From: Chthoniobacteraceae bacterium
GTDB lineage: Bacteria > Verrucomicrobiota > Verrucomicrobiia > Chthoniobacterales > Chthoniobacteraceae
Length of the DNA stretch: 33,471 bases
Direction: 5' to 3'
NCBI GenBank assembly: GCA_031409655.1
Contig: JANNXQ010000260.1
Span: 1 to 33,471, forward strand
How positions within the stretch are numbered: the first letter of the stretch is position 1; each line of letters begins with the position of its first letter. This document shows, in pieces, positions 7,727-32,429 of this stretch. A program made the position numbers and the translations under genes. The notes under the pieces are model-generated. The model was not told the origin of the DNA and searched no databases. It saw nothing but the letters and a program-made list of their open reading frames with translations.

Positions 7727-8514
7727 TGATCGAAGAGCGCGACGAGCACCACGTTGCAGAGCGTGTCGAAGCCGATTACCGTCGTAATGGAAGTCACTAC
7801 GCTGGAGGTCGTGGCGTCGCCCACACCCGCCGCGCCGCCGCGCACGGTCAGCCCTTTGTAGCAGGAGACGAGGCCGATGATGAGGCCGAAGAGAAAGCTC
7901 TTCACCGTGCCCGCTACGATGTCGCGGATGAGCAAGTTCTCCCCCGCGGTCTCGATGAAGCTGCGAAAGGGAATATCGAACGCCCAACGCGAGATCAGGC
8001 CCGCGCCGCACATCGCGGTGAGATCCGAGATGACGACGAGGCACGGCAGCAAAAGGAAAACCGCGAGCACGCGCGGACTCACAAGGAAGCGCAGCGGCCC
8101 GAGCCCCATCGCCTCGATGGCCTCGACCTCCTCGGAGACCGTCATCGTCCCCAACTCCGCCGTGTAGGCCGCGCCGATCCGCGCCGCGACCATGATGCCC
8201 GTCATGAGCGGTCCGAGTTCGCGCGTGAAAGCGATGCCCACGAGCGCCGGCACGAGCCGCTCCTGTCCGAAAGTCTGAAGCTGGTAACCGGTGAGCAGCG
8301 CCATCGTCAGGCCGATGAAGAACGAGACCAAGGCCACCAAGGGGATGGAGCCGACGCCGGTGCGCTCCGTCTGCTGAAAGAAGATCGAGAACCGAAAAGG
8401 AAACCGCCCGCGGACCACCTGGTCCCCCATTTCCTCCACCGTATGCACGAGCAGCCAGACGACACTGCTCAGGTGCTGGAGGGTGGAGCGGATGGCGGGC
8501 CAGGGCGAAAGCAT
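7723..8514 (-). CDS. mlaE: MlaE-family ABC transporter permease
   Basis: RELGPLMTG, AELGTMTVSEEVEA, GVGDATTSSVV motifs; start 8514 preferred (alternative GTG 8535). Confidence 0.92.
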   Translation of the reverse strand: MLSPWPAIRSTLQHLSSVVWLLVHTVEEMGDQVVRGRFPFRFSIFFQQTERTGVGSIPLVALVSFFIGLTMALLTGYQLQTFGQERLVPALVGIAFTRELGPLMTGIMVAARIGAAYTAELGTMTVSEEVEAIEAMGLGPLRFLVSPRVLAVFLLLPCLVVISDLTAMCGAGLISRWAFDIPFRSFIETAGENLLIRDIVAGTVKSFLFGLIIGLVSCYKGLTVRGGAAGVGDATTSSVVTSITTVIGFDTLCNVVLVALFDQ

Positions 8515-8523
8515 CGGCTCGGA

Positions 8524-8548
8524 ATCGCGCGCCACGTCGCTCGTGGAC
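8524..8548 (-). promoter_or_regulatory. Island bipartite motif upstream of mlaE
   Basis: gc-GTCCAC-N14-GCGAT, 9 nt before ATG 8514. Confidence 0.7.
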
Positions 8549-8595
8549 GCCGCGAGCGCCCGATGTCTGGCGGACGGGGCGTGACATTTTCACAC

Positions 8596-8620
8596 GCGCA
8601 CCCAGGGAGCCGACGGCGAT
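8596..8620 (+). promoter_or_regulatory. Island bipartite motif upstream of DUF2934 gene
   Basis: cacac-GCGCAC-N14-GCGAT, 9 nt before ATG 8630. Confidence 0.8.
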
Positions 8621-8629
8621 TCTCCAGGC

Positions 8630-8848
8630 ATGATGACGCCCCAAAACAACTGGCCTGATTTCGAGCAAGAGATCGCTGCGCTCGCCCATCAATACTGGAT
8701 GGAGGAAGGCTGCCCCCAGGACCGCTCGGTACAGCATTGGGAGTGGGCCGAGCGTGAGCTGCGCCGACGCTTCGGAGACGGTCCGTCGGACGGACAATCG
8801 CCCGGCGGCATCCCGAACGACACGGGCGCATCGGGGAAGATGGGTTGA
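8630..8848 (+). CDS. DUF2934-domain small protein
   Basis: EIAALAHQYWMEEGCPQDRSVQHWEWAEREL matches the DUF2934 pattern. Confidence 0.8.
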   Translation: MMTPQNNWPDFEQEIAALAHQYWMEEGCPQDRSVQHWEWAERELRRRFGDGPSDGQSPGGIPNDTGASGKMG

Positions 8849-8881
8849 ACGCTGAGGCAGGAGCAAGGAGCAGGGGTGCTT

Positions 8882-11800
8882 CTACCCTTTGAGATGCGTG
8901 GCGAGGGCGCGCAGGGGGACGCTGATGAATTCCGACGGGCGCGCAAGTTCGTGCGCGACTTCGCGGAGGGCGCGATCGACGAGGAAGAGTTCCAGAAGCG
9001 CGGCGCGCTCGGCGGCATCGCGCGGGACGATCGCGGCCTCGCCGAGCGCCTCGAAATAGGCGCGCACGAAGACCTCCGTAACGTGTGCCACCCAGACGGA
9101 GGCCCACAGTCGCAGCGCGGCGCGATCGGTCTCCATCTCGCGATGGACCGCGGCCTCGGCGGCGAAATCGAAGGAGCGCAGGAGCGCGGCGACATCGACG
9201 AGTGGCGAACGCTTCAAGGACCGTTCTCCCAGCGGGCGGCTCGCGTCGCCCTCGAAGTCGATCACGACGAAAGCCTTTCCGGTATTCAGCAATTGCCCGA
9301 GGTGCAGGTCGCCATGCACGCGCATCCTCGCGCCGGCGAAGCGCTGCTGATGGAGGCGCGCGAAGATGGCGAGCATCCCGCGCCGGTTTTCCACGATCTG
9401 CCCGGCGAGTCCATGATCGTCCTCGGAGAGACTCCCGAGACGCTGCCGCAGCAGCCGCAGGACGCGGCCCGCCTGCCCGCGCATCGCCTGATAGAGCGAG
9501 CGCTGATAGTGAACGCTGAAGGGTTCGGGAACGAACGCCGGACCGGTCTCGTCGGCCAAGGCGAGATGCAACTCGGCGACCTGCGCGGCGAGCAGTCGCA
9601 CGCGCTCGGGATAGACGGCGCCGATGACCGTTGCCGCGTCCGCAGTGGCAGCGTCGAGGCGGGCTTCCTGCGCGCGATCGAAGAAGCGCGCGAGGGCGTC
9701 GAGCGTGAAAGTCCAGCCGTCGCCCTGATGCGCGACGTAGCCGGTGACCGCGCTGAGCACGGTGCTGCCTTCGCGGCTTGGGAGGGACAACGCGCTGAAG
9801 AGCGGTGGCACGGTGGCGAAGCCGCGACGTTGCAGTGCTTCGAGCACCGTGACCTCGGGATGCGAGCCGGGTTCGATCCGTCGATAGACCTTGAGCAGGA
9901 GCGCGTCGCCAAAGGCGATGTTGGTATTGGCGCAATCCTCGTCCAGCAGCTGGCTCGCGGAGATTGCGGAAGGTTCCACGGGCCATTCGGAAAAGGAGCG
10001 TGCGGTAAAAGTCCGTGCGTCAGGTGGCCGATGAAGTTGCAACAGGTGCTCGCGCATGGCGGGCAAATACAACGCGTCCGCGAGCACTTCATCCGCACCC
10101 AGCTGGGCAAGCACGGCCTTGGGATGCTCCGTCTGGAGTCGCGCCGCGGCTTCACCCGCCACGCGGGCCAGGGGCAGCGCGTAAGTATCGGGTTCGCCTT
10201 CGGTGAAGTGGACCTCGATGAGACAGAGCCACGCCGAGTCTGTGAGCTCGATGGTCCGACCCACGGCGTAGTCGCGCACGGTGCGTCCTCCCGGGCGGAA
10301 CCAAGCGCAGCGCCGGAGAAAGCACGGCAGCACTTGACTCGTAAGTGTCGCGACGAAGCGAGCCGACCAACCCGCAAAGGCCGGCAACTCCGGCACCACG
10401 GCACGATCCGTGGCAGCGGTGCTTTGTAGAGCCAGCCAGTAGAAACCATGCGGCCCCAGCGTGACGACCATCGGCACATCCGCCCGCAGCGCGGGGAAGC
10501 GCGTGCGACCGAACAACTCTTCCGGGGCGATGCCCGCGAAGGCACTCAGATCCAGTTCCACGACCTGCACGAAGCGCGAGAGATTCGCCACGACGAGGAT
10601 CGTCTCACCCTCCAGCCGCCGCAGATAAGCGAGCACCTTGGCATTCTCCGGCTGGAGAAACTCGATGCTCCCCCGCGCAAAAGCCGCGCTCCCGCGTCGC
10701 ACCGCGAGGATGCGCCGCATCCACCAAAAGAGCGACGACGCATTCCGCTTCTGATTCTCCGCATTCACGGTCTCGTAGTGATACTCCGGGTCGATGATCA
10801 GCGGCAGGAGCAGCCGTTGCGGATTCGCGGAGGAAAAGCCGGCGTTACGATCCGGGCTCCATTGCATTGGGGTGCGCACGCCGTTGCGGTCGCCGAGGAA
10901 GATATTGTCGCCCATGCCGAGTTCGTCCCCGTAGTAGAGAATCGGGGTGCCGGGCATGGAGAGGAGCAGCGAGTTCAACAGCTCGATCTTGCGCCGGTTG
11001 TTGCCCACGAGCGGCGCGAGGCGGCGGCGGATGCCGACATTGATCCGCGCGCGCGGATCGGCGGCATAGACGCGCACCATGTAGTCGCGCTCCTCGTCGG
11101 TCACCATCTCCAGCGTGAGCTCGTCGTGATTGCGCAGAAAGATCGCCCACTGGCAGCCATCGGGGATCGGGGGCGTCTGCTCGAGGATGTCGATGATCGG
11201 AAAACGGTCCTCCATTTGCAGCGCCATGAAGAGCCGTGGCATGAGCGGGAAGTGAAAGTTCATGTGGCACTCATCGCCCGTGCCGTAATACTCGGCGGCG
11301 TCTTCGGGCCATTGGTTCGCTTCGGCGAGGAGCATCCGATCGGGGAATTTTCCGTCGATGTGCGCGCGGAGTTTGCGGATGAAGGCGTGGGTCTCCGGCA
11401 GGTTCTCACCATTGGTGCCCTCGCGTTCATAGAGATAAGCCACCGCGTCGAGGCGCAGTCCATCCACCCCGCGCTCCATCCAGAAATCCACCGCGCGCAA
11501 CAGCTCCTCCTTCACCGGCGGATGATCGAAATTCAGATCCGGCTGATGCGCGAAGAAGCGGTGCCAGTAGTAGGCATTAGCCGTGGGATCCCACGTCCAG
11601 TTCGACGGCTCAAAGTCCGGGAAGATGAGCCGCACCTCGCGGTAGCGATCCGGCGTCTCGCTCCACACATAGTAGTCGCGCTCCGGCGAACCCGCCGGCG
11701 CCCTTCGCGCGCGCTGAAACCACGCGTGCTGATCGGAGGTGTGATTGAGCACGAGTTCCGTGATCACGCGCAGGCCGCGCGCGTGCGCCGCAGCCATGAA

Positions 11801-12052
11801 CGCCTCGAAATCCGCGAGCGTGCCGTAACTCGGATGCACCGCGAGATAGTCCGCGATGTCGTAGCCGTCGTCGCGCAGCGGCGACGGATAGAAAGGCATG
11901 ACCCAAAGCGCCGTAACGCCGAGTTCCACGAGGTAATCGAGCCGCTGCGTGAGCCCAATGAAATCCCCCACGCCATCCCCGTCGCTATCCTGGAAAGTTT
12001 TGACGTGGAGCTGATAGATGACGGCATCTTTGAACCAGAGGGGATCGGACAT
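8882..12052 (-). CDS. treS: Trehalose synthase fused to maltokinase (TreS-Mak/Pep2)
   Basis: DPLWFKDAVIY start, GLRLDAV, LAEANQWP, FLRNHDELTLEMV (GH13 TreS); C-terminal RVHGDLHLGQ and IDFEG kinase motifs. Confidence 0.95.
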   Translation of the reverse strand: MSDPLWFKDAVIYQLHVKTFQDSDGDGVGDFIGLTQRLDYLVELGVTALWVMPFYPSPLRDDGYDIADYLAVHPSYGTLADFEAFMAAAHARGLRVITELVLNHTSDQHAWFQRARRAPAGSPERDYYVWSETPDRYREVRLIFPDFEPSNWTWDPTANAYYWHRFFAHQPDLNFDHPPVKEELLRAVDFWMERGVDGLRLDAVAYLYEREGTNGENLPETHAFIRKLRAHIDGKFPDRMLLAEANQWPEDAAEYYGTGDECHMNFHFPLMPRLFMALQMEDRFPIIDILEQTPPIPDGCQWAIFLRNHDELTLEMVTDEERDYMVRVYAADPRARINVGIRRRLAPLVGNNRRKIELLNSLLLSMPGTPILYYGDELGMGDNIFLGDRNGVRTPMQWSPDRNAGFSSANPQRLLLPLIIDPEYHYETVNAENQKRNASSLFWWMRRILAVRRGSAAFARGSIEFLQPENAKVLAYLRRLEGETILVVANLSRFVQVVELDLSAFAGIAPEELFGRTRFPALRADVPMVVTLGPHGFYWLALQSTAATDRAVVPELPAFAGWSARFVATLTSQVLPCFLRRCAWFRPGGRTVRDYAVGRTIELTDSAWLCLIEVHFTEGEPDTYALPLARVAGEAAARLQTEHPKAVLAQLGADEVLADALYLPAMREHLLQLHRPPDARTFTARSFSEWPVEPSAISASQLLDEDCANTNIAFGDALLLKVYRRIEPGSHPEVTVLEALQRRGFATVPPLFSALSLPSREGSTVLSAVTGYVAHQGDGWTFTLDALARFFDRAQEARLDAATADAATVIGAVYPERVRLLAAQVAELHLALADETGPAFVPEPFSVHYQRSLYQAMRGQAGRVLRLLRQRLGSLSEDDHGLAGQIVENRRGMLAIFARLHQQRFAGARMRVHGDLHLGQLLNTGKAFVVIDFEGDASRPLGERSLKRSPLVDVAALLRSFDFAAEAAVHREMETDRAALRLWASVWVAHVTEVFVRAYFEALGEAAIVPRDAAERAALLELFLVDRALREVAHELARPSEFISVPLRALATHLKG

Positions 12053-12061: not shown

Positions 12062-12086
12062 ATCGCACCGCGCGCCCGTGCTGCGC
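12062..12086 (-). promoter_or_regulatory. Island bipartite motif upstream of treS
   Basis: agcac-GCGCAG-N14-GCGAT, 9 nt before ATG 12052. Confidence 0.8.
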
Positions 12087-12103
12087 GTGCTGACTCGCGA
12101 TAC

Positions 12104-12128
12104 ACCCACCGATTCCGGCGCGTGCGTT
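12104..12128 (+). promoter_or_regulatory. Variant island motif upstream of the response regulator
   Basis: gatac-ACCCAC-N14-GCGTT, 17 nt before ATG 12146. Confidence 0.5.
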
Positions 12129-12145: not shown

Positions 12146-12856
12146 ATGCATCCAGAAATCTCACCTCCCTTTCCAAGTCTCGTCGCAGGCGAAGCACGGA
12201 AGCGCGTGCTCATCGTGGATGACCATCCCGTCTTCCGCCGCGGCATCGGCGAGCTCATCCGCCGCCGGAGCAACATGGCGATCTGCGGCGAAGCGGAAAA
12301 CGCCCACGCCGCACTCGAGGCGACGCGCCGACTCGATCCCGACGTGGTGATGCTCGACGTTTCACTTCCCGGCGCCAATGGCATCGAGGTCATCAAGCTC
12401 CTGCTCGCCGAACGCCCGCGGCTGCGCATCCTCGTCGTCTCGATGCATGAGGAATCGCTCTACGCCCTGCGCGCCCTGCGCGCCGGAGCGAAAGGCTACG
12501 TCATGAAGAACCAAGCCGAGGAGCAACTGCTCGACGCCCTGCGCAAAGTCACGAGCGGCGGCCTCTACGTGAGCCCGGCCCTGGGGGAAAAGCTCGTCTT
12601 CAAAATCGTGCAAGGCAGCGCCGGCGACCTCGGCTCACCGGTGGACAAACTTTCCGATCGCGAACTCGAAGTCTTGCAACTCTTCGGTCACGGCAAGAGC
12701 ACGCGCGAAGTGGCGGAGGCCCTGCACCTGAGCGTAAAGACGATCGAAACCCATCGCGCGCACATCAAAGAAAAACTGGGATTCAAGGACGCCGCCGAGA
12801 TGGTGAAGTTTGCGATCGAGTGGGTGGCGGTGGAGGAAAGCAGCCAGCGACTTTAG
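12146..12856 (+). CDS. NarL/FixJ-family response regulator (REC + LuxR HTH)
   Basis: VLIVDDHP, VMLDVSLP, GYVMK, LSDRELEVL...LHLSVKTIETHR. Confidence 0.93.
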   Translation: MHPEISPPFPSLVAGEARKRVLIVDDHPVFRRGIGELIRRRSNMAICGEAENAHAALEATRRLDPDVVMLDVSLPGANGIEVIKLLLAERPRLRILVVSMHEESLYALRALRAGAKGYVMKNQAEEQLLDALRKVTSGGLYVSPALGEKLVFKIVQGSAGDLGSPVDKLSDRELEVLQLFGHGKSTREVAEALHLSVKTIETHRAHIKEKLGFKDAAEMVKFAIEWVAVEESSQRL

Positions 12857-12917
12857 CAACCAAACTTTTTCACACCGGCCTGATCCGCGCGCAGGCCGGA
12901 CCGCGGATTGCGCATAC

Positions 12918-12942
12918 GGCCGGAGCCCGGGGCGTCCGCGAT
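12918..12942 (+). promoter_or_regulatory. Island bipartite motif upstream of treY
   Basis: catac-GGCCGG-N14-GCGAT, 13 nt before ATG 12956. Confidence 0.7.
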
Positions 12943-12955: not shown

Positions 12956-15721
12956 ATGAGCGCCATCCCGACCGCCACCTACCGGTTCCAGTTTCACCAA
13001 GGGTTCACTTTTGCGGATGCGCGGGCGCTGGTGCCTTATTTGCAGCGGCTCGGAATCAGCCATGTGTATGCTTCGCCGTTCTGGCGGGCGGCGCCGGGCA
13101 GCACGCATGGGTATGATGTCGTGGAGCACAACGCGCTGAATCCGGAAGTGGGGACGCGTGAGGACTTCGAGGCGTTCTCTGCGGAGCTGAAGACGCACGG
13201 GCTCGGGCTGATCGTGGACTTTGTGCCGAATCACATGGGCATTGAACGGGCGCTGAATCCGTGGTGGCGCGATGTCTTGGAGCATGGGCCGTCGTCGCCG
13301 TATGCGCAGTTCTTCGACATCGATTGGCAGCCAGTAAAGCGCGAACTCGAAAACAAGGTGCTGCTCCCGGTGCTCGGTGAACAATATGGGCGCGTGCTGG
13401 AGAGCGGCGAATTGCGCGTGGAGTTTGCGGATGGGGACTTTGGGCTGCGGTGTGGGGAGTTCACGCTGCCGGTGGCACCGCGGACGACGGTGCCGTTCGT
13501 GCAGCGGGCGGTGGAGCTGCTGGCGCCTGCTCCAGCGGAGTTGAAGAGCATCCTCACGGCGATCGAGCACCTGCCCTCGCGCACGGAGACGGTGCCGGAA
13601 CGGATCGCCGAGCGGGTGCGGGAAAGGCAGATCATCCGTGAAAGGCTCACGCGGCTTTGCGTCGAGGCGCCGTCCGTGACGGATGCGATCCAGCGCTCGC
13701 TGGACGAATGGCACGATCCGGCGGACGCGGCCCGCTTCGACCGACTCGATGCGCTGATCAGCGGGCAATCTTATCGGCTGAGTTCGTGGCGCGTGGCGGG
13801 AGAGGAGATCAACTACCGGCGCTTCTTCGATGTGAATACGCTCGCGGCGATCCGCATGGAATTGCCCGAAGTCTTCGAGGCGACCCATGGCCTGCTCTTT
13901 GCACTGCTCGACGCCGGCCATGTGGCCGGAGTGCGCATCGACCACATCGACGGCCTCGCATTCCCGCGGGACTACCTCGCACAGCTCCGCCAGCGCGGCG
14001 GCGATGGGTGGTATATCCTCGTGGAGAAGATCCTCGGCCCCGATGAAAAACTGCGCGCGGATTGGCCGGTGCAGGGGACGACGGGTTACGAGTTTGCCAA
14101 TCAACTCACGCAACTGCTCATCGCCGCGCCGGGCATCACGCAACTCGCGGCGACTTACGACAAGTTCCTCGGCTTCCATCTCGATTACCGCGAGGTCGTC
14201 TATCGCAGCAAACGCCTCGTGATGCAGACGGCGATGGCGAGCGAGGTCAACGCGCTTGGCCATCGGCTCAATCGCGTGTCCGAGAGCCATCGCTGGTCTC
14301 GCGACTTTACGCTGAACTCGCTGACCGCTGCGGTGCGCGAAGTCATCGCGTGCTTTCCGGTCTATCGTAGTTACCTCGATCCGACGCAGTCCGCGGACGA
14401 GTCGGATGTGCGGCTCATGAGCCGGGCCATCTCGCTGGCCCGGAAGCGGAATCGTTCGATGGAGCGCACAGTCTTTGAGTTTCTGCGCGACGTGCTTCTT
14501 CCGCCCGCTGACAATCAGCATCCCGTCGATGAGGGATTGCGCCGCACCTTCGTGCTGAAGTTCCAGCAATGCACCGGGCCGATCACGGCCAAGGGCGTCG
14601 AGGACACCGCTTTCTATGTTTTCAATCGTCTCGTCGCCTTGAATGAAGTCGGCGGCGAACCGCACGCCAGTGGCGCGACGAGCGAAATTTTCCACCAGCA
14701 GAATACGGCGCGGCTCGCGGAGACGCCGCACAGTTTGCTCGCCACTTCCACTCACGACACGAAGCGCAGCGAAGATGTGCGCGCACGGCTCGCCGCGCTC
14801 TCCGAGCTGCCCGATGCATGGAGCCGTGCGGTGCGGCGCTGGCACACCATGAATCGCAAGCACCGCCGTGAAATCGACGGCGACCTCGCGCCGGACGCGA
14901 ACGAAGAATATCTCCTCTACCAGACGCTGCTCGGTGCGTGGCCGCTCGAAGGTCTCACCGGCAACAACCGCGAAGAATTCATCGCCCGCATCCAGGACTA
15001 CATGGTGAAGGCGTTGCGCGAGGCGAAGGTGAACAGCAGTTGGATGGAGCCGAATGCCGATTGGGAGGATGCGGTGCGTGCCTTTGTCGCCACGATCCTC
15101 ACTCCCGGCGCGCGCAATCGTTTCCCCGCCAGCCTCGCACCCATCGCCGAGCGCACCGCGCAACTCGGGATGGTGAACTCGCTCACGCAAACGGTGCTCA
15201 AGCTCACCTGCCCCGGCGTCCCGGACTTCTATCAAGGAAGCGAGCTGTGGGATTTTTCCCTGGTCGATCCCGACAACCGCCGGCCGGTGAACTACAAACT
15301 GCGCCAGGAACAACTCGCGGAAGTGCAGCGCGCGGCGGCGGGAGCGTTACTGACGACGTGGAGGGATGGGCGGATCAAGATGTTCGTCACGCATCGGCTG
15401 CTTGCACTGCGGCGGCAGCAGGCGGCGCTCTTTGCGAGCGGCAGCTACACGCCGGTCGCGGTGAGGGGCGCGCACGCGGAGCGTGTCGTTGCGTTTGAGC
15501 GCACCCATGGGGCTTCGTCGCTGCTGGTGATCGTCCCGCGGCACACGGCGGCGCTCGGTTACCCGCCAGTGGGAGAGGTGTGGGAGGACACGCACGTCGC
15601 GGCGACCGAGCCGGAGCGGCGCTATCGGGGAGTCTTCACCGGATGCGAGCATGGGGGTGCGCCGCTGGCGCTCGCGGAGGCCCTCGGGGAGCTGCCAGTG
15701 GCGGTGCTCACGTCGGTGTAG
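12956..15721 (+). CDS. treY: Malto-oligosyltrehalose synthase
   Basis: PTATYRFQF, GSTHGYDVV, DFVPNHM, INYRRFFDVN, RIDHIDG, TSTHDTKRSED, SLVDPDNRRPV. Confidence 0.96.
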   Translation: MSAIPTATYRFQFHQGFTFADARALVPYLQRLGISHVYASPFWRAAPGSTHGYDVVEHNALNPEVGTREDFEAFSAELKTHGLGLIVDFVPNHMGIERALNPWWRDVLEHGPSSPYAQFFDIDWQPVKRELENKVLLPVLGEQYGRVLESGELRVEFADGDFGLRCGEFTLPVAPRTTVPFVQRAVELLAPAPAELKSILTAIEHLPSRTETVPERIAERVRERQIIRERLTRLCVEAPSVTDAIQRSLDEWHDPADAARFDRLDALISGQSYRLSSWRVAGEEINYRRFFDVNTLAAIRMELPEVFEATHGLLFALLDAGHVAGVRIDHIDGLAFPRDYLAQLRQRGGDGWYILVEKILGPDEKLRADWPVQGTTGYEFANQLTQLLIAAPGITQLAATYDKFLGFHLDYREVVYRSKRLVMQTAMASEVNALGHRLNRVSESHRWSRDFTLNSLTAAVREVIACFPVYRSYLDPTQSADESDVRLMSRAISLARKRNRSMERTVFEFLRDVLLPPADNQHPVDEGLRRTFVLKFQQCTGPITAKGVEDTAFYVFNRLVALNEVGGEPHASGATSEIFHQQNTARLAETPHSLLATSTHDTKRSEDVRARLAALSELPDAWSRAVRRWHTMNRKHRREIDGDLAPDANEEYLLYQTLLGAWPLEGLTGNNREEFIARIQDYMVKALREAKVNSSWMEPNADWEDAVRAFVATILTPGARNRFPASLAPIAERTAQLGMVNSLTQTVLKLTCPGVPDFYQGSELWDFSLVDPDNRRPVNYKLRQEQLAEVQRAAAGALLTTWRDGRIKMFVTHRLLALRRQQAALFASGSYTPVAVRGAHAERVVAFERTHGASSLLVIVPRHTAALGYPPVGEVWEDTHVAATEPERRYRGVFTGCEHGGAPLALAEALGELPVAVLTSV

Positions 15722-15777
15722 AGGCAGCACGCCCGGCTCGATCGCCGGAAAGAGCCGCCGCTCATCCGTTCCGATGC

Positions 15778-15802
15778 GTCCAGCGGAGCCGGATGCCGCG
15801 AT
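15778..15802 (+). promoter_or_regulatory. Island bipartite motif upstream of the GSP26-like gene
   Basis: gatgc-GTCCAG-N14-GCGAT, 10 nt before ATG 15813. Confidence 0.7.
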
Positions 15803-15812: not shown

Positions 15813-16322
15813 ATGGACACCACACCCTCGCCTGTCGAAGCGCGGCAACATTTCCGCGACCTGCTCAAAAAATTCCACACCGCCATGCTTGTCACGCACG
15901 GCAAGGATGGGCGGCTCCGCGCCCGGCCGATGGCTGTCGCCCGCGTCGATGAAGATGGCGGCCTCTGGTTTTTCAGTGACACCGACTCCGCGAAGATCCA
16001 CGAGATCGAAGCGGACACTGCGGTGCATATCGTCTGTCAGGACGATCGCAGCGCGTATCTCTCGATGAGTGGCCGTGCGCAGCTCCGCGATGATTTCCAT
16101 CTCATCGCGCAACTCTGGCAGGAACCCTTTCGCGTGTGGTTCCCCGGCGGTGCGGACGATCCGAACATCAAATTGATCCGAGTGCATCCCGCGCAAGGCG
16201 AATACTGGGACACCACGGGCTTCCAGAAGATCAAGTATCTCTTCGAGGCCGCGAAGGCTTACGCCACGGGCGAGACGCCCAAGGTCGCGGAAGGCGAGCA
16301 ACACGGGCGCGTGGTGTGGTAG
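15813..16322 (+). CDS. Pyridoxamine 5'-phosphate oxidase-like FMN-binding protein (general stress protein 26 type)
   Basis: AMLVT...LRARPM...LWFF...SAKIHEI...WFPGGADDPNI...GEYWD. Confidence 0.85.
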   Translation: MDTTPSPVEARQHFRDLLKKFHTAMLVTHGKDGRLRARPMAVARVDEDGGLWFFSDTDSAKIHEIEADTAVHIVCQDDRSAYLSMSGRAQLRDDFHLIAQLWQEPFRVWFPGGADDPNIKLIRVHPAQGEYWDTTGFQKIKYLFEAAKAYATGETPKVAEGEQHGRVVW

Positions 16323-16378
16323 TGGCGCGCCGGGTCGTACACTTGATTCCAGAGTTTCTGACGAGCGAAAATTAACCC

Positions 16379-16403
16379 GGCCACTCACCGAACGAGGCGC
16401 GAA
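16379..16403 (+). promoter_or_regulatory. Variant island motif upstream of paoA
   Basis: cc-GGCCAC-N14-GCGAA, 35 nt before ATG 16439. Confidence 0.45.
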
Positions 16404-23448: not shown

Positions 23449-23499
23449 GTATCCACTTTCAACTTTCTCGAAGGCCAGACCGTGGAGCACGCCCGGGAC

Positions 23500-23975: not shown

Positions 23976-24000
23976 ATCGCGAATGAAGTGCCGCGCGGTC
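23976..24000 (-). promoter_or_regulatory. Island bipartite motif upstream of the CsbD gene
   Basis: gacac-GACCGC-N14-GCGAT, 8 nt before ATG 23967. Confidence 0.8.
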
Positions 24001-24014
24001 GTGTCAAAGCGCAG

Positions 24015-25614: not shown

Positions 25615-25736
25615 GTGTGGCAAGCGGCTTTGCCATTCTCGAGAATCAAGCCCTGATTCGCGGCTCGGGGCTTTAGTGATCTTCCGATGCCTCCCCGTCG
25701 CGTCGGAGAAATCGGGAGGATGCGAGCGATAGATAC

Positions 25737-25761
25737 GCGCACCCGCCGCGCGCGCGGCGAT
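25737..25761 (+). promoter_or_regulatory. Island bipartite motif upstream of 25774 gene
   Basis: gatac-GCGCAC-N14-GCGAT, 12 nt before ATG 25774. Confidence 0.8.
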
Positions 25762-25773: not shown

Positions 25774-26040
25774 ATGGCCAAACGATCTCAACCCACTCCG
25801 CCCAAGCTCGACGACCTGATGGTGCGGGCCGACGGCTTCGCGCGCCGCGAACCGGCGACCGCCATTGCTTCCGCCTTCGGCGCGGGCTTCCTGCTCAATC
25901 TCCTCCCACTCGGCGCGATCGCTGCCGCTCTCGTGGGCATCGCCTTCTCCCTCGTGCGACCGGCGCTGCTTTTCCTCGGCCTCTTCAAAGCCTGCGAACT
26001 TTGCCGCACCCAAACCTCCACCACTCCCAGCCATGAATGA
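25774..26040 (+). CDS. Hypothetical small membrane protein (88 aa)
   Basis: FARREPATAIASAFGAGFLL resembles DUF883-type anchors; hydrophobic segment; motif upstream. Confidence 0.7.
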   Translation: MAKRSQPTPPKLDDLMVRADGFARREPATAIASAFGAGFLLNLLPLGAIAAALVGIAFSLVRPALLFLGLFKACELCRTQTSTTPSHE

Positions 26041-26395
26041 TGCCACAAAAATAGATGAAGCCGCGATCGCCGCGACCGACAAGCGATTGGTCGGAGAAAC
26101 GCAGCCCTGCTGCGATCGGACGAACATGGTGCTCTGGGCGATTGGCGCGGGCCTGGCCATCGGGCTGATCGTGCGCGCGCTGCGCCCTGCGCCGACGCGC
26201 ACCGAGCGTGTCTCCGAGCTGCTTGCCGATCTCGAAGATCGTCTCCGCGACGCGACCCGCCCGACCTTGCGCCGCGCCAGTGCTTACGCCAGCGACGGCG
26301 CCGAGGTGCTGCGCGATCGCCTGCACAATGGCGAAGCCCGGCTCGGCCGCATTTTCCACGACGCCACCCGCGGGGTGCGCAAACTCTTTTCGTGA
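26033..26395 (+). CDS. Hypothetical protein (120 aa) with one TM helix and amphipathic tail
   Basis: 8-nt overlap with upstream gene; VLWAIGAGLAIGLIVRAL TM segment. Confidence 0.7.
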   Translation: MNDATKIDEAAIAATDKRLVGETQPCCDRTNMVLWAIGAGLAIGLIVRALRPAPTRTERVSELLADLEDRLRDATRPTLRRASAYASDGAEVLRDRLHNGEARLGRIFHDATRGVRKLFS

Positions 26396-26434: not shown

Positions 26435-27637
26435 CTAACGATCGAAACGGAAGAGATGCGCCTCGGTATTCGGTCGGCGGAGGATGGCGTCGCGGATGAT
26501 CTCCGCGGCGACGACGCTGTAAGTCACCCCATTTCCCCCGAAGCCGAGCGTGAAGTAACACGCGGGTAACTCCGGCACGGAGCCGATGTAGGCGAGACCG
26601 TCCTTGGTTTCGCCGAAGGTGCCGCCCCACGCGTAGGCGATCTCCAGGTCGATACGCGGGAAAAGTTCGCGGAAGCGGCGGGCGAGGCGCTCGGCTTTCT
26701 TCGGCACGAGCGCGTCGCGGCGGAGCGGATTGCGGAAAGGATCGTCCTCCCCACCGACGATCGCGCGCCCGTCGTTGGTGGTGCGCATGTAGAGGTAAGG
26801 CCGCGCCGTTTCCCAGAGGAGGCACTGCTCCCACCAACCGTCGAAATTCTCCACGGGCTCGCTCACGAAGGCGAACGACGACTTCAATTCCACCACGCGG
26901 CGATCGAGTAACTCCACGGCCTCATACCCCGTGGCAAAGACCGCCCAACGCGCGCGGATGGTGTGGTCGCGGTCGGTGGTGAAGGTGACGCCGTCTTCGC
27001 GCGCGTCGTATTTCTCCACGGCCGTGCGGTCGAAGATGCGTGCGCCACGGCTCTGCGCGCGGGCGAGCAGACGGTGCGCGAGGCGGAAGGCATCCACCTC
27101 CGCCGCGGTGTGCGAGAGCAGCGCTGCGGGCCGGCTGAAGGAAAAGCGGGCGGCGATCTCCGGCTCGGTGAGGAAGGCCACGTCGATGCCCGCCGCCTGG
27201 CGCGCGTCGCATTCGGCGCGGAGGTCGGCGACTTCGGATTTCTTCGTCGCGATGTAGAGGCTCTTCTTCTTCGTGAAGCCGCAGTCGTCGCCGAGTTCGG
27301 CGCAGAGGGCTCCGACTTTCCCGATACTCTCGAGACAGACGCGATAAGCCTCTTCCGCATCGCGCTGGCCAAGGCGCTCGATCAATTCCGTCAGCGGGGT
27401 ATCGATCTCGTATTGGAGCAGTGCGGTGGTCGCGGAGGTGCTGCCGCTGGCCACTTCCCGCTTGTCCAGCACGACGACGTCGAGTCCTGCCTCCACGAGC
27501 TTGTCCGTGACGAGCGCGCCGGTGATGCCCCCGCCGAGCACCACCACTTCACATTCCACATCCTGCTTGAGCGATGGATACACGCTGAGCAGTCCGTTTT
27601 TGAGCGGCCAGAAAGGATGAGGAGAAAGCAAGTCCAT
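26435..27637 (-). CDS. FAD-dependent oxidoreductase (DAO/glycine oxidase family)
   Basis: VVVLGGGITG, SGSTSATTALLQYEID, ATGY, WGGTFGETKDGL, GFGGNG. Confidence 0.9.
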   Translation of the reverse strand: MDLLSPHPFWPLKNGLLSVYPSLKQDVECEVVVLGGGITGALVTDKLVEAGLDVVVLDKREVASGSTSATTALLQYEIDTPLTELIERLGQRDAEEAYRVCLESIGKVGALCAELGDDCGFTKKKSLYIATKKSEVADLRAECDARQAAGIDVAFLTEPEIAARFSFSRPAALLSHTAAEVDAFRLAHRLLARAQSRGARIFDRTAVEKYDAREDGVTFTTDRDHTIRARWAVFATGYEAVELLDRRVVELKSSFAFVSEPVENFDGWWEQCLLWETARPYLYMRTTNDGRAIVGGEDDPFRNPLRRDALVPKKAERLARRFRELFPRIDLEIAYAWGGTFGETKDGLAYIGSVPELPACYFTLGFGGNGVTYSVVAAEIIRDAILRRPNTEAHLFRFDR

Positions 27638-27648: not shown

Positions 27649-27673
27649 TACGCGGAAGAGCCCGCAAGTGGAC
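27649..27673 (-). promoter_or_regulatory. Island bipartite motif upstream of the FAD oxidoreductase
   Basis: ggcac-GTCCAC-N14-GCGTA, 11 nt before ATG 27637. Confidence 0.65.
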
Positions 27674-27690
27674 GTGCCGCTTGAAAGTGC

Positions 27691-27715
27691 GACCGGATCG
27701 CGGGCCAGCGGCGAT
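27691..27715 (+). promoter_or_regulatory. Island bipartite motif upstream of 27725 gene
   Basis: agtgc-GACCGG-N14-GCGAT, 9 nt before GTG 27725. Confidence 0.7.
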
Positions 27716-27724: not shown

Positions 27725-27961
27725 GTGAAAGAATTCATCATCCGGCTCACCGATCCTTCCACGGTAGATCAACAACTTGCCGTGAGGGTGGCCGGGGAGG
27801 GCGATGTCGGGCGGGCTGCGCAGTTGGCGATTGACGACATGATTGCCACGCGCGGTGGCGACTTCGCGTTCCCGCTCTTCATCGACATCCACCTGGCGGA
27901 AGAGTTCCCACAGGTCGCGGCGCATTATGAGCAGGCCCAGCGGAGTGGTGCCCGAGTGTAG
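27725..27961 (+). CDS. Hypothetical protein (78 aa)
   Basis: GTG start MKEFIIRLTDPST...; fills the intergenic gap, protein-like composition, motif upstream. Confidence 0.65.
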   Translation: MKEFIIRLTDPSTVDQQLAVRVAGEGDVGRAAQLAIDDMIATRGGDFAFPLFIDIHLAEEFPQVAAHYEQAQRSGARV

Positions 27962-27985
27962 GCCACCGGGTCCGCGTTGCGCGCC

Positions 27986-28010
27986 ATCCACCAAGGGCCC
28001 CTCGCGCGAT
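27986..28010 (+). promoter_or_regulatory. Island bipartite motif upstream of yihY-like gene
   Basis: cc-ATCCAC-N14-GCGAT, 9 nt before ATG 28020. Confidence 0.6.
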
Positions 28011-28019: not shown

Positions 28020-29105
28020 ATGAACTTTCGCCCGCTCACCGACCACCGCGTTTTCCGAATGCTCAAGGCCACCGCCGACGCGTGGCTGGAAGACAACGCG
28101 CTGCGGCTCAGTGCGGCGCTCGCTTACTACTCCATCTTTTCCATCGCCCCGTTGCTCGTCATCGCGATCAGCGTCGCTGGACTCGTGCTCGGCGAGGAAG
28201 CGGTGCGCGGCCAGCTCGGCCAGCAGCTCGAAGGCTATCTCGGACCGCAAGCCGCCGCGGGCGTGCAGACTCTGGTCCAAAGCGCCTCGAAGCCCTCCGA
28301 AGGCTGGCTCGGTGCGATCGTCGGATTTGCCACGCTGCTGCTCGGCGCTTCGGGGGTTTTTGGGCAATTGAAGGACGCGCTCAACACCATCTGGGGGGTG
28401 AAACCGAAAGGCGGCGCGGGGGTCTGGCGCTTCGTCCGTGAGCGGCTGCTGAACTTCGGCCTGGTGCTCGTCATCGGCTTTCTCTTGCTCACATCGCTGG
28501 TCCTCACCACGACCCTCGCCGCGCTCTCGGGTTACATCGAGCAACGCGTCGGCATCCCACCCGTCGTCGGCGGGCTCGTGACCTTCGGCGTCTCGTTGGG
28601 CGTGGTCACCCTGCTCTTCGCTTTCATTTTCAAAGTGCTGCCCGATGCGCAAATCGAATGGCGCAACGTGTGGATCGGTGCCGGCGTCACCGCGCTGCTT
28701 TTCGAGATCGGCAAGTTCGGCCTCGGCTTCTATCTCGGTCGGGAAAGCACGGCGTCGGGCTTCGGCGCCGCGGGCTCCGTGGTCATCCTGCTCCTGTGGG
28801 TCTATTACGCCTCGTGCATTTTGCTTTTCGGCGCGGAGTTCACGCAGGTCTATGCCCGCGAGACCGGGCACGACATCCAACCCTCGCCGAATGCTGTGCC
28901 CGTGACCGCGAAGGAGCGCGCGCAACAGGGCCTCGTTCCGGCTCACATCCCCGAGCAGCGGAGCGCGCCACCGCAGCCACTGCGGCTCCCCGTCCCTGCG
29001 GCACCCACTGGCGGCCATCCGATGGGCGCGCTGCTCGGAGTCGTCGCTGCGGCCTTCGTGGTCGGCCTCGTCGCCCGCCGCGAAGTGGAGCGCCGCGGTT
29101 CGTGA
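28020..29105 (+). CDS. YihY/virulence factor BrkB family membrane protein
   Basis: AALAYYSIFSIAPLL, LKDALNTIW, FKVLPD, FGAAGSVVILLLWVYY..ILLFGAEFT. Confidence 0.92.
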   Translation: MNFRPLTDHRVFRMLKATADAWLEDNALRLSAALAYYSIFSIAPLLVIAISVAGLVLGEEAVRGQLGQQLEGYLGPQAAAGVQTLVQSASKPSEGWLGAIVGFATLLLGASGVFGQLKDALNTIWGVKPKGGAGVWRFVRERLLNFGLVLVIGFLLLTSLVLTTTLAALSGYIEQRVGIPPVVGGLVTFGVSLGVVTLLFAFIFKVLPDAQIEWRNVWIGAGVTALLFEIGKFGLGFYLGRESTASGFGAAGSVVILLLWVYYASCILLFGAEFTQVYARETGHDIQPSPNAVPVTAKERAQQGLVPAHIPEQRSAPPQPLRLPVPAAPTGGHPMGALLGVVAAAFVVGLVARREVERRGS

Positions 29106-29125
29106 TCATCCCAGATTTTCGACAA

Positions 29126-29150
29126 GCGCACCGCTCCTCCCTCGCGCGAT
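29126..29150 (+). promoter_or_regulatory. Island bipartite motif upstream of PA2169-like gene
   Basis: gacaa-GCGCAC-N14-GCGAT, 12 nt before ATG 29163. Confidence 0.75.
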
Positions 29151-29162: not shown

Positions 29163-29612
29163 ATGAGCAACACCACCTCCACTCTCAACGACCTGATCGA
29201 AACCCTGAAAGACGGCCAGGAAGGCTTCCGCGCCGCGGCGGAAGACGTCGAATCCTCCGATCTTAAAACCCTCTTCGGCGAATACTCGCTCCAGCGCAGC
29301 AAGTTCGCCGGCGAACTCCAAGCGCTCGCCCGCGGACTCGGCGAAAAGGAACCCGAGACCACCGGCTCCGTCTCCGGCGCGCTGCATCGCGGCTGGATCA
29401 ATCTCAAGGCCGCGCTTTCCAGCAAAGACGAGCACGCCATCCTCGCGGAGTGCGAGCGCGGCGAAGATTCCGCCGTCGCCGAATACCAGAAAGCGCTCGA
29501 GCAAACGGGCCTGCCCGCCAACGTCCAGGACATCCTCCGCACGCAATTCACCGCCGTGCAAGCCGCGCACGATCGCGTGCGCAACCTGCGCGACTCGCTC
29601 GCGGCGAAGTAA
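29163..29612 (+). CDS. PA2169-family four-helix-bundle (ferritin-like, DUF2383) protein
   Basis: LNDLIETLKDGQEGF, GALHRGWINLK, ECERGEDSA. Confidence 0.92.
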   Translation: MSNTTSTLNDLIETLKDGQEGFRAAAEDVESSDLKTLFGEYSLQRSKFAGELQALARGLGEKEPETTGSVSGALHRGWINLKAALSSKDEHAILAECERGEDSAVAEYQKALEQTGLPANVQDILRTQFTAVQAAHDRVRNLRDSLAAK

Positions 29613-29723: not shown

Positions 29724-31610
29724 TTAATTCCCGATCACTTCCGAAGCCAGCAGCACGCCGGACTCGGCAGCAAGATTCCAAGGGATCTCCGTCTCGAACG
29801 GGAGGGTGCCGCCTCCGCCGTAGCGGGGATCTTCACTCGACCACACCAACTTCCATCGGCAGCCACGCGGCGGGGCGAGCAGCGGTTCGGGGGCGGGATC
29901 AAGGGGTGATTGCGGGCCGAGATTGATCAGCAGCAGGCGATCGTCCTGCGCCGGGCCGAAGAACCGCAGGACGAAAGCCGCGGCATCGAGCACGGCGCCG
30001 TCGCAAGTTCCGCGCGGCGCTTTGCCGAGCACCGGATCGTCGCGGCGCAGGTGCAGCAGATCACGATGCAGACGCAGCACCGCGGCGTGGGTTTGCCGCT
30101 CCGAGAAATCCAGCTTGCAGCGCTGGAAGGTGTCGCTCGAACCAGGATCGGGGAGTAACTCGACCCCATCGCCCGCGGCGATGCGGGGAAATTGCCGGAG
30201 TAACTCCGCGCGCCCCGCCGCCACCGCACGCGCCAACTCGGGCGGATGATCGGAAAAATAGAGAAACGGCGCGGAAGCCGCGAACTCCTGACCCTGGAAT
30301 AACATCGGAGTATTCGGACCCAGCAAGAGCAGCGCGGTGAGCGCGCGCCAGCGGCCCGCGCTGGCCATCGTGTGCAGACGCCGGCCCGCCAGAGAATTGG
30401 CGATCTGATCGTGATTCTGCAGGAAGTTTACAAAGCTCGCCGGCGAGAGATCAAAACCCGGTTCCCCCCGCGGCGCGCCCAGCCACTTGCTCCGCTGGCC
30501 CTGGTAAAGAAAACCCCGCTTGGCCATGGAAATGAACTCCTGCGGAGATCCGCGATAGCTCATGTAGTAGGCTTCCTGTCGCCCGGTGAGTGCGACCATC
30601 GCCGCATGATGAAAGTCATCGTTCCACATGGCTTGCAGGCCGCAGCCGCCTTCCTCGAGTGAACGGAGGAGATGGGAGCGCTGGGTCTCATCTTCCGCGA
30701 CCAAATAAGTGCCGCGCCCGCGCGCTGCATCGCGCACCTGGCGGGCGATCACCCCCAGCACATGGTCGTGCGATACATCGAGGATTTGCTGCGTGGCATC
30801 CAGCCGCAACCCGTCGAGATGGAATTCGTCGATCCAGTAACCGGCATTCGCGACGAAAAACTCGCGCACCGGGCCGCTGTGCTCGTCGTCGAAATTCAGC
30901 GCGTCGCCCCAATCGTTCTTGTAACTCGAGCTGAAGTATTGCCGGGAAAAATTTCCCAGGTAATTCCCCTCGGGACCAAGATGATTATAGACAACATCGA
31001 GAATGACTCCGAGGCCGGACGTGTGCGCGCGATCCACAAAGCGGCGGAAGTCATCCGGATCGCCGTAGAGCCGCGTGGGCGCGAAGAGATTTACGCCATC
31101 ATAACCCCAGCCATGCCGGCCGGGGAAATCCGCAATGGGCATGACTTCGATCAAAGTAACCCCGAGATCCGCGAGATGCTGCAACTGCTCCATCGCCGCG
31201 GCCCACGTGCCTTCGCGCGTGAAGGTGCCGATGTGCATCTCGTAGATCGCTTGTCCGTCCCGCTGCACCCCAAGCCACTCACCATCCGACCAAATGAATG
31301 CGCCTGGATCGACGATCTGCGACGCCCCGTGTGGCCCGAGCGGTTGAAAGCGCGACGCGGGATCGGGCCAAGCTCCGCCATCGAGTTGGTAGCGATATTG
31401 CATTCCCGCCCTAGCTACGCCGACATCACCGGACCAATAGCCGCTCCGTTCGGCGCGCAGTTGGGCCGGGATCGCATCGGTTAAATCATTCCTCCATCCA
31501 AAGATTACGGAAACCCGATCCGCCGTGGGTGCCCACACGCGGAAATGCACGCCGCCGCCAGCCTGGACTTCGGCTCCCACTGGCAACCGGCGTGAGTCGT
31601 GCCTGGTCAT
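29724..31610 (-). CDS. treZ: Malto-oligosyltrehalose trehalohydrolase
   Basis: FRVWAP, PDPASRFQP.GPHG, YEMHIGTFT, WGYDGV, DVVYNHLGP, GLRLDAT, LQNHDQ, PMLFQGQE (alternative start 31646). Confidence 0.95.
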   Translation of the reverse strand: MTRHDSRRLPVGAEVQAGGGVHFRVWAPTADRVSVIFGWRNDLTDAIPAQLRAERSGYWSGDVGVARAGMQYRYQLDGGAWPDPASRFQPLGPHGASQIVDPGAFIWSDGEWLGVQRDGQAIYEMHIGTFTREGTWAAAMEQLQHLADLGVTLIEVMPIADFPGRHGWGYDGVNLFAPTRLYGDPDDFRRFVDRAHTSGLGVILDVVYNHLGPEGNYLGNFSRQYFSSSYKNDWGDALNFDDEHSGPVREFFVANAGYWIDEFHLDGLRLDATQQILDVSHDHVLGVIARQVRDAARGRGTYLVAEDETQRSHLLRSLEEGGCGLQAMWNDDFHHAAMVALTGRQEAYYMSYRGSPQEFISMAKRGFLYQGQRSKWLGAPRGEPGFDLSPASFVNFLQNHDQIANSLAGRRLHTMASAGRWRALTALLLLGPNTPMLFQGQEFAASAPFLYFSDHPPELARAVAAGRAELLRQFPRIAAGDGVELLPDPGSSDTFQRCKLDFSERQTHAAVLRLHRDLLHLRRDDPVLGKAPRGTCDGAVLDAAAFVLRFFGPAQDDRLLLINLGPQSPLDPAPEPLLAPPRGCRWKLVWSSEDPRYGGGGTLPFETEIPWNLAAESGVLLASEVIGN

Positions 31611-31651
31611 TTGCGGCACCGCTACTTCCGCGTCAGGAGGCTCCATAGCCG

Positions 31652-32266
31652 CTACCGCGGGACCGTCGGCGCGGGAGTCGTCCGAGTGGGACTTTCGAGC
31701 ACCAGGCCATCAAAGGTCAGCACTTGAGTTCCGCGCAGGCGGATCTGTTTTCCATCCGGCAAAGTCAACATACCATCCGGCTTCACCGTCGTCCCGTTCG
31801 GCAGCTTAAAATCCCGGCCGAGCCGCTCGATCACGCCATTGCGCGTCACCATCACCGCCCCACCGGAAACCGTCACTCCATCGGCAGAGGAAGTGACGAC
31901 CCCTTCGCCCACATTCTTCATCGGGGTCACCAACGAACTCACGGGCGCCGTCCCCTGCGGCGAGAGCGCAACGTCTTCAAAGGCACCGGTCAGCGTGAGC
32001 AGTTGATTGTCCCGCAGCGCCGCCTTCTCGCCATTTGGCAAAGTGACGGAACCATCGGCTTGCACGCGCAAGCCGTTCTCGAGCACGAGTTCCCTCTCCA
32101 CCTTTTGCGAGACGCCATTGCGGGTGAGGAGGACGCCGGCCCCCCCCCGGGTGAACCCGTCGCGCGCGGAAACCGCGCCGCCCGGGACCACTCCTGGCAA
32201 TGATTTCTGAGCAAAAGCAAGCTGACTGGCAAAGACGACAAAAAGAGAGAGCAGCGACCTTTTCAT
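31652..32266 (-). CDS. Secreted protein with two tandem DUF6799-like beta-rich domains
   Basis: Signal peptide MKRSLL...AFA; two ~59-aa repeats DG...TRNG...L.NG..V..DG..TLP.G....LR..Q.LT..G. Confidence 0.75.
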   Translation of the reverse strand: MKRSLLSLFVVFASQLAFAQKSLPGVVPGGAVSARDGFTRGGAGVLLTRNGVSQKVERELVLENGLRVQADGSVTLPNGEKAALRDNQLLTLTGAFEDVALSPQGTAPVSSLVTPMKNVGEGVVTSSADGVTVSGGAVMVTRNGVIERLGRDFKLPNGTTVKPDGMLTLPDGKQIRLRGTQVLTFDGLVLESPTRTTPAPTVPR

Positions 32267-32275
32267 GGAACTCAA

Positions 32276-32300
32276 ATCGCTGGACACGCCCGCTGCGGTC
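32276..32300 (-). promoter_or_regulatory. Island bipartite motif upstream of DUF6799-like gene/treZ
   Basis: cacac-GACCGC-N14-GCGAT, 9 nt before ATG 32266. Confidence 0.8.
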
Positions 32301-32316
32301 GTGTGAAATCCCACGC

Positions 32317-32341
32317 GGTCAGTGCGGCGACCACGAGCGAT
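32317..32341 (+). promoter_or_regulatory. Island bipartite motif upstream of 24-aa peptide gene
   Basis: cacgc-GGTCAG-N14-GCGAT, 13 nt before ATG 32355. Confidence 0.6.
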
Positions 32342-32354
32342 TCATCAGGCACCT

Positions 32355-32429
32355 ATGAATAATGTCTTCTACATCATCGGTGTGCTCGTGGTCATCCTCG
32401 TCATCCTCAAATTCGTCGGGCTTTACTGA
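32355..32429 (+). CDS. 24-aa single-TM microprotein MNNVFYIIGVLVVILVILKFVGLY
   Basis: Manual translation; host-like C/G third positions (atc, gtc, ctc, ttc); motif upstream; below the ORF-track cutoff. Confidence 0.7.
   Translation: MNNVFYIIGVLVVILVILKFVGLY

Follow-up and report, generated by a model that had tools for sequence, protein, structure and literature searches.

The window analysed here, the 33,471-nt contig JANNXQ010000260.1 (C260) of the Chthoniobacteraceae bacterium assembly GCA_031409655.1, carries an island of stress-protection genes (5922–32429, no strand assigned) whose transcription units repeatedly begin with the same two-part, promoter-like motif. C260 is one of the contigs of a 6.85 Mb genome with 63.4% GC (G000, the source genome); further genomes, contigs and loci are designated by G, C and L numbers. 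The island comprises mlaEFD, DUF2934, treS, a NarL-type regulator, treY, treZ, DUF6799, a GSP26-like gene, a paoABC-like set with xdhC and mobA, ROK, HAD, csbD, yihY and PA2169 genes, a hybrid kinase and an FAD oxidoreductase. Gene starts were taken from a simple in-house gene caller, which misplaced several of them in the window. The proposed reader of the motif is encoded outside the window.

A sequence-only reading of this DNA had proposed that 17 gene starts share a hexamer and a GCGAT-type pentamer separated by 14 nt, 12 of them with exact GCGAT. These 12 are all in place, 8–13 nt before the start and with the hexamer 14 nt upstream. When the motif is written as a fixed rule (.C[AG].[CG]C[AG].-N14-.CGA[AT]) and the gap to the start is held at 7–13 nt, 11 of the 17 starts have an exact match, against a mean of 0.017 and a maximum of 2 in 5000 shuffles, a count that is circular because the rule was derived partly from these same sites. 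For a strict pattern the window gives 10 matches, where 100 shuffles average 2.71 and never exceed 9. On the forward strand, exact sites precede DUF2934 (site 8594–8620, gene 8630–8848, gap 9 nt), treY (12916–12942, 12956–15721, gap 13), the GSP26-like, pyridoxamine-oxidase-like gene (15776–15802, 15813–16322, gap 10), a pair of genes for membrane-protein-like products of 88 and 120 residues (25735–25761, 25774–26395, gap 12), a 78-residue open reading frame (ORF) with a GTG start (27689–27715, 27725–27961, gap 9) and yihY/BrkB (27984–28010, 28020–29105, gap 9). On the reverse strand they precede mlaE-mlaF-mlaD (8524–8550, 5922–8514, gap 9), back to back with the DUF2934 site, treS-maltokinase (12062–12088, 8882–12052, gap 9), the csbD-like gene (23976–24002, 23500–23967, gap 8) and the DUF6799-treZ unit (32276–32302, 29724–32266, gap 9). 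The start at 8514 had been chosen partly with the motif in view, and both start and motif are kept in G001. The motif also stands before treS and treY in L132 and before relatives of the membrane-protein-like pair in G001 and G002.

The pentamer is GCGAA before the genes for a 62-residue lipoprotein-like product, HAD and ROK (reverse strand, 23424–23450, genes 21802–23412, gap 11) and before the paoABC-like/xdhC/mobA unit (forward strand, 16377–16403, genes 16439–21830), an exact match to the rule at a gap of 35 nt. Four claimed starts have one mismatch: the FAD oxidoreductase (GCGTA; reverse strand, 27649–27675, gene 26435–27637, gap 11), PA2169 (forward strand, 29124–29150, gene 29163–29612, gap 12), a 24-residue hydrophobic peptide (forward strand, 32315–32341, gene 32355–32429, gap 13) and the NarL-type regulator (GCGTT; forward strand, 12102–12128, gene 12146–12856, gap 17), whose site is weak and uncertain. 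The seventeenth, TGAAT before the REC-HisKA-HATPase-REC hybrid kinase (reverse strand, 24015–25568), has two mismatches in the −10 part; it lacks support and was rejected as a site. The motif had also been described as missing before operon-internal genes and the genes at 2.2–5.3 kb. This holds for exact matches (0 of 10 operon-internal genes in the window, 0 of 3 unit-leading genes at 2.4–3.7 kb), but not for one-mismatch matches, which occur at mobA, HAD and aldehyde dehydrogenase.

A matrix built from 14 window sites only was run on the other 305 contigs of G000 as a held-out test. At a score of at least 12 and a spacer of 14 nt, 15 of 706 matches lie near an ATG start, whereas the same matrix gives 0/745, 5/996 and 6/1362 at spacers of 11, 12 and 13 nt and 3/916, 2/1376 and 0/746 at 15, 16 and 17 nt. 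Five contigs (C165, C58, C85, C5 and C210) hold 15 of the 26 matches scoring at least 10; GSP26-like, ferritin-like and transglutaminase-like proteins and a low-affinity iron permease are among the products, and the Pfam domains of the held-out targets include CsbD (three), BON, Ferritin, Pyrid_ox_like, Iron_permease, Transglut and REC-SpoIIE. A rule-based scan of the whole genome found 36 sites at spacer 14, 26 of them outside C260, against 7–20 at 11 other spacers (range 9–20); about 11–12 of the 26 are chance matches. Among 2345 unit leaders, 15 carry the motif at spacer 14 and 2–5 at other spacers, and it occurs on at least six further contigs besides C260. GCGAT shows no general enrichment upstream of genes (5190 called genes), so the motif is not a housekeeping promoter. 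CsbD, trehalose enzymes, catalase HPII, ferritin-like and BON proteins belong to the cargo of the general-stress sigma factors RpoS and SigB. Typical genes of this kind stand under one promoter type here, in the window and among the held-out targets; the cargo overlaps, while sigma class and promoter differ from those of RpoS and SigB. On these sequence comparisons the motif is very probably a real regulon promoter.

Conservation was followed mainly through csbD. In the Chthoniobacterales, NCGAW lies 8–12 nt before the start at 24 of 30 csbD loci (the start of one in-order locus was not located). When these 24 are aligned on the −10 part alone, with W set at −10, a −35 part emerges, with C at −35 in 18, R at −34 in 21, C at −32 in 18, C at −31 in 23 and R at −30 in 21, while the base at −33 is free. 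Only CGAW is fixed across the 24 promoters (CGAT in 13, CGAA in 11). GCGAT is the local form, and its leading G is mostly a feature of the source genus. The family-wide form is RCRNSCR-N15-NCGAW, 8–13 nt upstream of the leading gene of a transcription unit. In a second family, that of G037, the −10 is present at 22 of 29 csbD, and 19 of these 22 fit spacer 14 with no more than one mismatch, whereas no other spacer is fitted by more than 2; base −30 is G or T. The PA2169 relatives are a weak case, since 7 of 12 fit spacer 14 with at most one mismatch and 5 also fit spacer 12. Whole-genome pattern counts in relatives are too noisy to be used alone, and their reversed-pattern control was mismatched in composition. 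Of 151 genomes sampled from the phylum, 9 had a csbD, and G000, G037 and G160 had strong matches to the sigma factor clade described below (clade V); none of six csbD in outside-order genomes without that clade has the motif. In G160, which has clade V, the motif heads an operon containing one csbD (gap 19) and also stands before CsbD-like, glycine-zipper (37% identity to the C58 protein), sorbosone dehydrogenase and DUF4336 genes. None of six fetched matches in G119, which has no clade V, is recognisably of stress type.

The sequence-only reading had taken the motif for the −35/−10 pair of an alternative sigma factor encoded elsewhere and driving a general-stress-type regulon, and the held-out enrichment, the csbD conservation and the target domains bear this out. 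Its further statement that the motif matches no consensus does not stand. The excerpts of PMC11519972 give the consensus of LitS, an extracytoplasmic function (ECF) sigma factor, as GCATCCR-N15-CVGAAD. The supplement of PMC7826278, as far as available, places LitS and SigK in ECF19, with ATC in the −35 and CG or TG in the −10, gives the ECF18 promoter as TGCATCTT/CGTA, and lists Verrucomicrobia as 0.51% of ECF19. The geometry and core bases of the motif coincide with this ECF19/ECF18 promoter type; the motif and LitS share a seven-base −35, 15 nt and a five-base −10 ending in GA(A/T), with RC..CCR beside GCATCCR. The comparison was made with the LitS consensus. CG at −10 and the spacing are both present, and the T of ATC is found in 9 of 24 csbD sites. 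The −35 of the yihY site matches LitS at six of seven bases. EcfG (ECF15) promoters have a GGAAC-type −35 and a GTT-type −10, and this form is not matched by the logo of the 24 csbD promoters.

The position of the motif is informative about the transcripts. In the genome rule scan the gaps to ATG peak at 8–9 and 11–12 nt, with none at 4–6, and TAnnnT peaks at −12/−13 and −16 before unit-leading ATGs in G000; both fit leaderless or nearly leaderless transcripts. If W is at −10, as in ECF promoters, a gap of 9 would set +1 on the A of ATG. Most motif-driven mRNAs would then be leaderless or have a leader of 2–4 nt, and the TAnnnT peaks suggest that leaderless housekeeping transcripts are common in G000 as well.

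Among the 42 sigma region-2 matches of G000 are two paralogous ECF sigma factors, C58:11693–12349 and C276:33358–33990, of 218 and 210 residues and with sigma2 and sigma4 only, the ECF architecture. Both genes lie inside sister stress islands, beside DUF1328 or DUF3309 and with csbD nearby, and on C58 also with catalase and DUF892 nearby. The best PDB match of the C58 protein is SigK, and the NCBIfam SigK model scores 127 and 137 bits for the two proteins, below its cut-off of 226. A quick tree of 77 of 91 ECF matches (14, mostly the weakest, were left out, and SigK itself was not included) splits a 51-row clade V (SH-aLRT 88/90) from a 26-row RskA-linked clade holding C66 and C219. Of 41 genomes, 29 have clade V, among them 21 of the 22 that bear csbD; the lone exception is 75% complete. 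G002, which is 96% complete, has a clade V member and no other, together with the motif at both of its csbD. No anti-sigma gene follows the C58 or C276 gene, the motif stands before neither of the two, and 24 of 80 clade V loci are orphans in this sense. Around 23 further orphan loci the motif was found at spacer 14 before 15 of 293 genes, including csbD, treS, treY and DUF3309, against 0–4 at other spacers. The remaining 56 loci encode a soluble partner of 51–87 residues, mostly 78, which was found by a short sequence pattern. This conserved protein (L145–L209) resembles the N-terminal part of RskA-type anti-sigma factors, and many examples come from Ca. Udaeobacter records. It is possibly a NepR-like small anti-sigma, and the sister subgroup that carries it probably recognises a slightly different form of the motif. 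Upstream of such anti-sigma-type ECF genes (e.g., L145, L150, L153, L160 and L218), inspection by eye shows a conserved TGGACG, about 17 nt and a TAAGA-like element; it resembles a sigma-70-type promoter and could be a target of the RpoS-like sigma factor.

Residues that contact the promoter agree in part. According to the passages available of PMC7776599, R at the position of RpoE-F175 is associated with −32T, and an acidic residue at that of RpoE-K56 is associated with −11A. By our own mapping the free base of the motif would be −32 in that numbering; it is T in 9 of 24 csbD sites and in 4 of 14 window sites. At the RpoE-F175 position all 80 clade V proteins have E, and SigK, C66 and C219 have R; at RpoE-K56, E is found in all 56 anti-sigma-type proteins and in 13 of the 15 orphan proteins that were scored. 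The two G000 copies have no sigma-4 cysteines. The motif is nearly absent before the clade V genes themselves (0 of 24 orphan and 1 of 56 anti-sigma-type loci, L169; also L046 and L099 in a scan of the tree rows), and the autoregulation test gave no direct link to the reader. From co-occurrence, synteny and these residues, we consider it likely that the motif is read by the clade V, SigK/LitS-like ECF lineage.

Several observations weigh against reading the motif as a regulon promoter served by clade V. The window sites fit the LitS −35 at 2–6 of seven bases and the −10 at 2–4 of five, so that the motif is a relaxed version of that consensus and differs from it. Five csbD (in G004, G015, G017, one in G021 and one in G000) have no −10 despite clade V in the genome, and a loose rule also matched 11 of 38 csbD at spacer 18, probably through repeats within the −35. 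When gaps of 7–70 nt are allowed, the enrichment is gone in the islands of G160, G021, G029, G037, G030 and G005. In G160, both Pfam-detected csbD and PA2169 lack the motif at gaps of 6–14 nt; moreover, 14 of 22 pattern matches there and 6 of 13 in G119 were chosen by eye, and 5 of those 14 stood before nothing longer than a 10-residue ORF. In G000 itself, the C58 catalase, DUF892 and DUF1328 have no rule match in the genome scan, as is the case for several island genes. Clade V is also present in 8 of 19 genomes without csbD, near anti-sigma-type ECF genes the motif precedes only 1 of 757 genes, and the two G000 copies carry A and Q at the RpoE-K56 position. The related genomes counted are, finally, kin and not independent.

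Other readers of the same promoters were weighed. Another ECF factor, either an RskA-linked ECF19-type protein (C66, C219) or one of about 35 others, has in its favour that the RskA-linked proteins are SigK-like too, that ECF19 and ECF18 promoters have the geometry of the motif, and that G000 has 42 region-2 matches; cross-recognition is plausible. We nevertheless regard it as unlikely: no RskA-linked member is among the matches in G002, G003, G011, G019 and G037, all of which have the motif before csbD; the R of these proteins predicts a −32T that only the 4 window sites mentioned above possess; and the C66 and C219 genes lie outside stress islands. A reader of another class, the RpoS-like group-2 sigma factor G000:C19:20956–21843, which would parallel the general stress response of enteric bacteria, is suggested by the resemblance of G−14 C−13 to an extended −10 and by the 17 nt from the hexamer to position −12, which fit group-2 geometry. 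This protein scores best as RpoD/RpoS-like, below cut-offs, and it is found in nearly all relatives, so that its presence cannot exclude it as the reader. Against it, it is found at 63–79% identity in five of five genomes of other orders, in four of which csbD is without the motif; its region 4.2 reads RERIRQ, an RpoD-type motif that would predict a TTGACA-like −35; and the motif sites have no conserved −7 T. Together these points make the C19 protein a distinctly unlikely reader. A second group-2 sigma factor, G000:C32:97176–98090, was dropped as a candidate, since just 7 of the 41 genomes have it and many that carry the motif do not; it is a divergent member of the group with altered regions 2.4 and 4.2.

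The motif may instead have nothing to do with a sigma factor and be an operator, for example of the NarL-type protein encoded in the island, or a translation signal, its −10 part sitting at the position of a ribosome-binding site. We judge this improbable. The two boxes form neither a direct nor an inverted repeat, and their spacing equals the published ECF consensus, as given in the excerpts cited above. The gap peaks parallel those of TAnnnT before unit leaders, and the paoA and G160 sites lie 19–35 nt from the start. Operon-internal genes are without the motif and have a Shine-Dalgarno-like signal more often. Sigma-28 had been named as the closest lead on account of the CGAT core, and a FliA protein is encoded in G000 (C170, above the cut-off of TIGR02479). 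Its gene sits in a flagellar cluster, however, the −35 of the motif is GC-rich, unlike the TAAA of sigma-28, and CGAA and CGAT have similar frequencies in the order (11 and 13 of 24); the ECF19/ECF18 type fits instead, and FliA is a very improbable reader. Chance matching in 64% GC DNA, helped by the motif-guided choice of starts, gains something from the degeneracy of the motif, from the chance share of the rule sites outside the window and from the noisy counts in relatives. It is refuted, with almost no probability left to it, by an enrichment at one particular spacer that recurs on the held-out contigs and in further genomes, with the same gene families downstream.

For clade V as the reader, the region upstream of its own genes points to a further tier of control. 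A sigma-54-type GG-N10-GC (−24/−12) box precedes 20 of 51 clade V rows of the tree, against 0 of 26 RskA-linked rows, and it is found at 15 of the 24 orphan loci but at only 1 of the 56 anti-sigma-type ones; the box of the C276 gene has GA in place of GC. In a scan of 45 selected loci, mostly orphan, of which 40 have the box under a permissive score, TGTC-Nn-GACA lies upstream of the box in 30 of the 40 (n = 9 in 23), whereas shuffled sequences give 7.6 on average and 15 at most. The palindromes upstream of orphan ECF genes are tandem TGTC-N9-GACA. At 20 of the 40 loci (L039, L041, L070, L132 and others) a conserved CAGAGTAAA / CTCTGTAAA element was also noticed about 10 nt upstream of the box, in either orientation, possibly the site of a DNA-bending protein. 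The genome contains rpoN, and C58 encodes a REC-Sigma54_activat-HTH_8 (NtrC-type) protein; such a gene lies close to 8 of the 24 orphan loci and to none of the other 56. The NtrC-type activator would pair with the palindromes and the sigma-54 box of the ECF gene. A 219-residue protein consisting of a dimerisation and histidine phosphotransfer (DHp) and a catalytic (CA) domain is likewise encoded near 8 of 24 orphan loci. Its genes in G000 (C58:12526–13185 and C276:32369–33022) are divergent from the ECF gene, and the motif stands upstream of it in L152. By inspection, the histidine and the N box are kept, and there is no sensor and no DxGxG box. The fold matched histidine-kinase cores generally, with no phosphotransferase among the matches listed; we infer that the protein may act as a phosphotransferase.

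A circuit can be proposed from these elements, in which hybrid kinases, possibly via the DHp-CA protein as phosphotransferase, would phosphorylate the NtrC-type activator. The latter, with sigma-54 RNA polymerase, would drive transcription of the clade V gene, and the ECF factor would in turn switch on trehalose/glucan enzymes, CsbD, PA2169, ferritin, BON, YihY and small membrane proteins. The hybrid kinase of the window is a possible input to this cascade. The Chthoniobacterales may accordingly have a general-stress architecture of their own, next to those of RpoS, SigB and EcfG, from phosphorelay through sigma-54 and an anti-sigma-free SigK-like ECF factor to a mostly leaderless regulon, with the 78-residue soluble anti-sigma holding the same sigma lineage instead in the Ca. 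Udaeobacter-type subgroup. This scheme is put forward tentatively, with a confidence somewhat short of even. The REC-SpoIIE (PP2C) phosphatase gene G000:C85:542–1732 carries the motif, as do its counterparts in L135, L139 and L143 (four genomes), which hints at a SigB-like partner-switching element or at feedback.

Several known systems are comparable. With the ECF19 factors LitS of Streptomyces and SigK of mycobacteria the system shares, besides the promoter type, SigK as the best solved relative of the candidate sigma factor. It differs in its promoter, where the base at −32 is free and that at −33 is A or G, in keeping with E and not R at RpoE-F175, in the absence of the RskA-type membrane anti-sigma typically encoded at position +1 in ECF19, in the absence of autoregulation in the orphan subgroup and of sigma-4 cysteines in the two G000 copies, and in its targets, which are general-stress genes and not carotenoid or MPT70/83 genes (the parts of PMC7509140 at hand offer background on SigK only). 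The EcfG-NepR-PhyR system of Alphaproteobacteria, in the passages of PMC8103513 that discuss EcfG for general stress and do not mention Verrucomicrobia, likewise has an ECF factor driving a general-stress regulon with CsbD and trehalose genes, and its NepR is loosely like the small soluble anti-sigma-like partner of the sister subgroup. ECF lineage and promoter are different, and control here appears to be transcriptional, via sigma-54, in place of partner switching. A chain from enhancer-binding protein and sigma-54 to an ECF gene and its regulon is described, in the excerpts of PMC5263251, for HrpR/HrpS-sigma-54-HrpL of Pseudomonas syringae; the output there is type III secretion, whereas here it would be stress protection, under an activator with a receiver domain. 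In Rrp2-RpoN-RpoS of Borrelia burgdorferi (PMC4014564, in part) a response-regulator enhancer-binding protein and sigma-54 also control a second sigma factor, which is RpoS, not an ECF factor, and serves host adaptation.

Few soil bacteria are as common as the Chthoniobacterales, Ca. Udaeobacter among them. In the partly accessible literature we came across no account of how their stress protection is activated and no report of this regulon in Verrucomicrobiota; the supplement of PMC7826278 or the supplementary information of PMC7776599 could hold a subgroup motif or a predicted regulon. The promoter class is known (ECF19-like). What appears to be new, judging from the literature searched, is its proposed general-stress use in Verrucomicrobiota by an anti-sigma-free clade under sigma-54. 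The promoter, a named sigma clade, the sigma-54 tier and the gene list together make a testable map of the stress response. If the scheme is true, an ECF19-like sigma factor would have lost its anti-sigma, relaxed one promoter base by a single residue change and become a global stress regulator.

Some further features of the window may be mentioned. A multicopper oxidase gene at 1–2153 is broken into two overlapping ORFs (ends at 1014 and 2153), by a frameshift or an assembly error. Broken insertion sequence (IS) remnants of lower GC, judged by eye, flank the island, IS630-like on the left (5200–5900) and IS3-like on the right (32600–33471). Within the island, four pairs of promoters stand back to back, 12–43 nt apart (8524–8620, 12062–12128, 27649–27715 and 32276–32341), and divergent polymerases may compete there.

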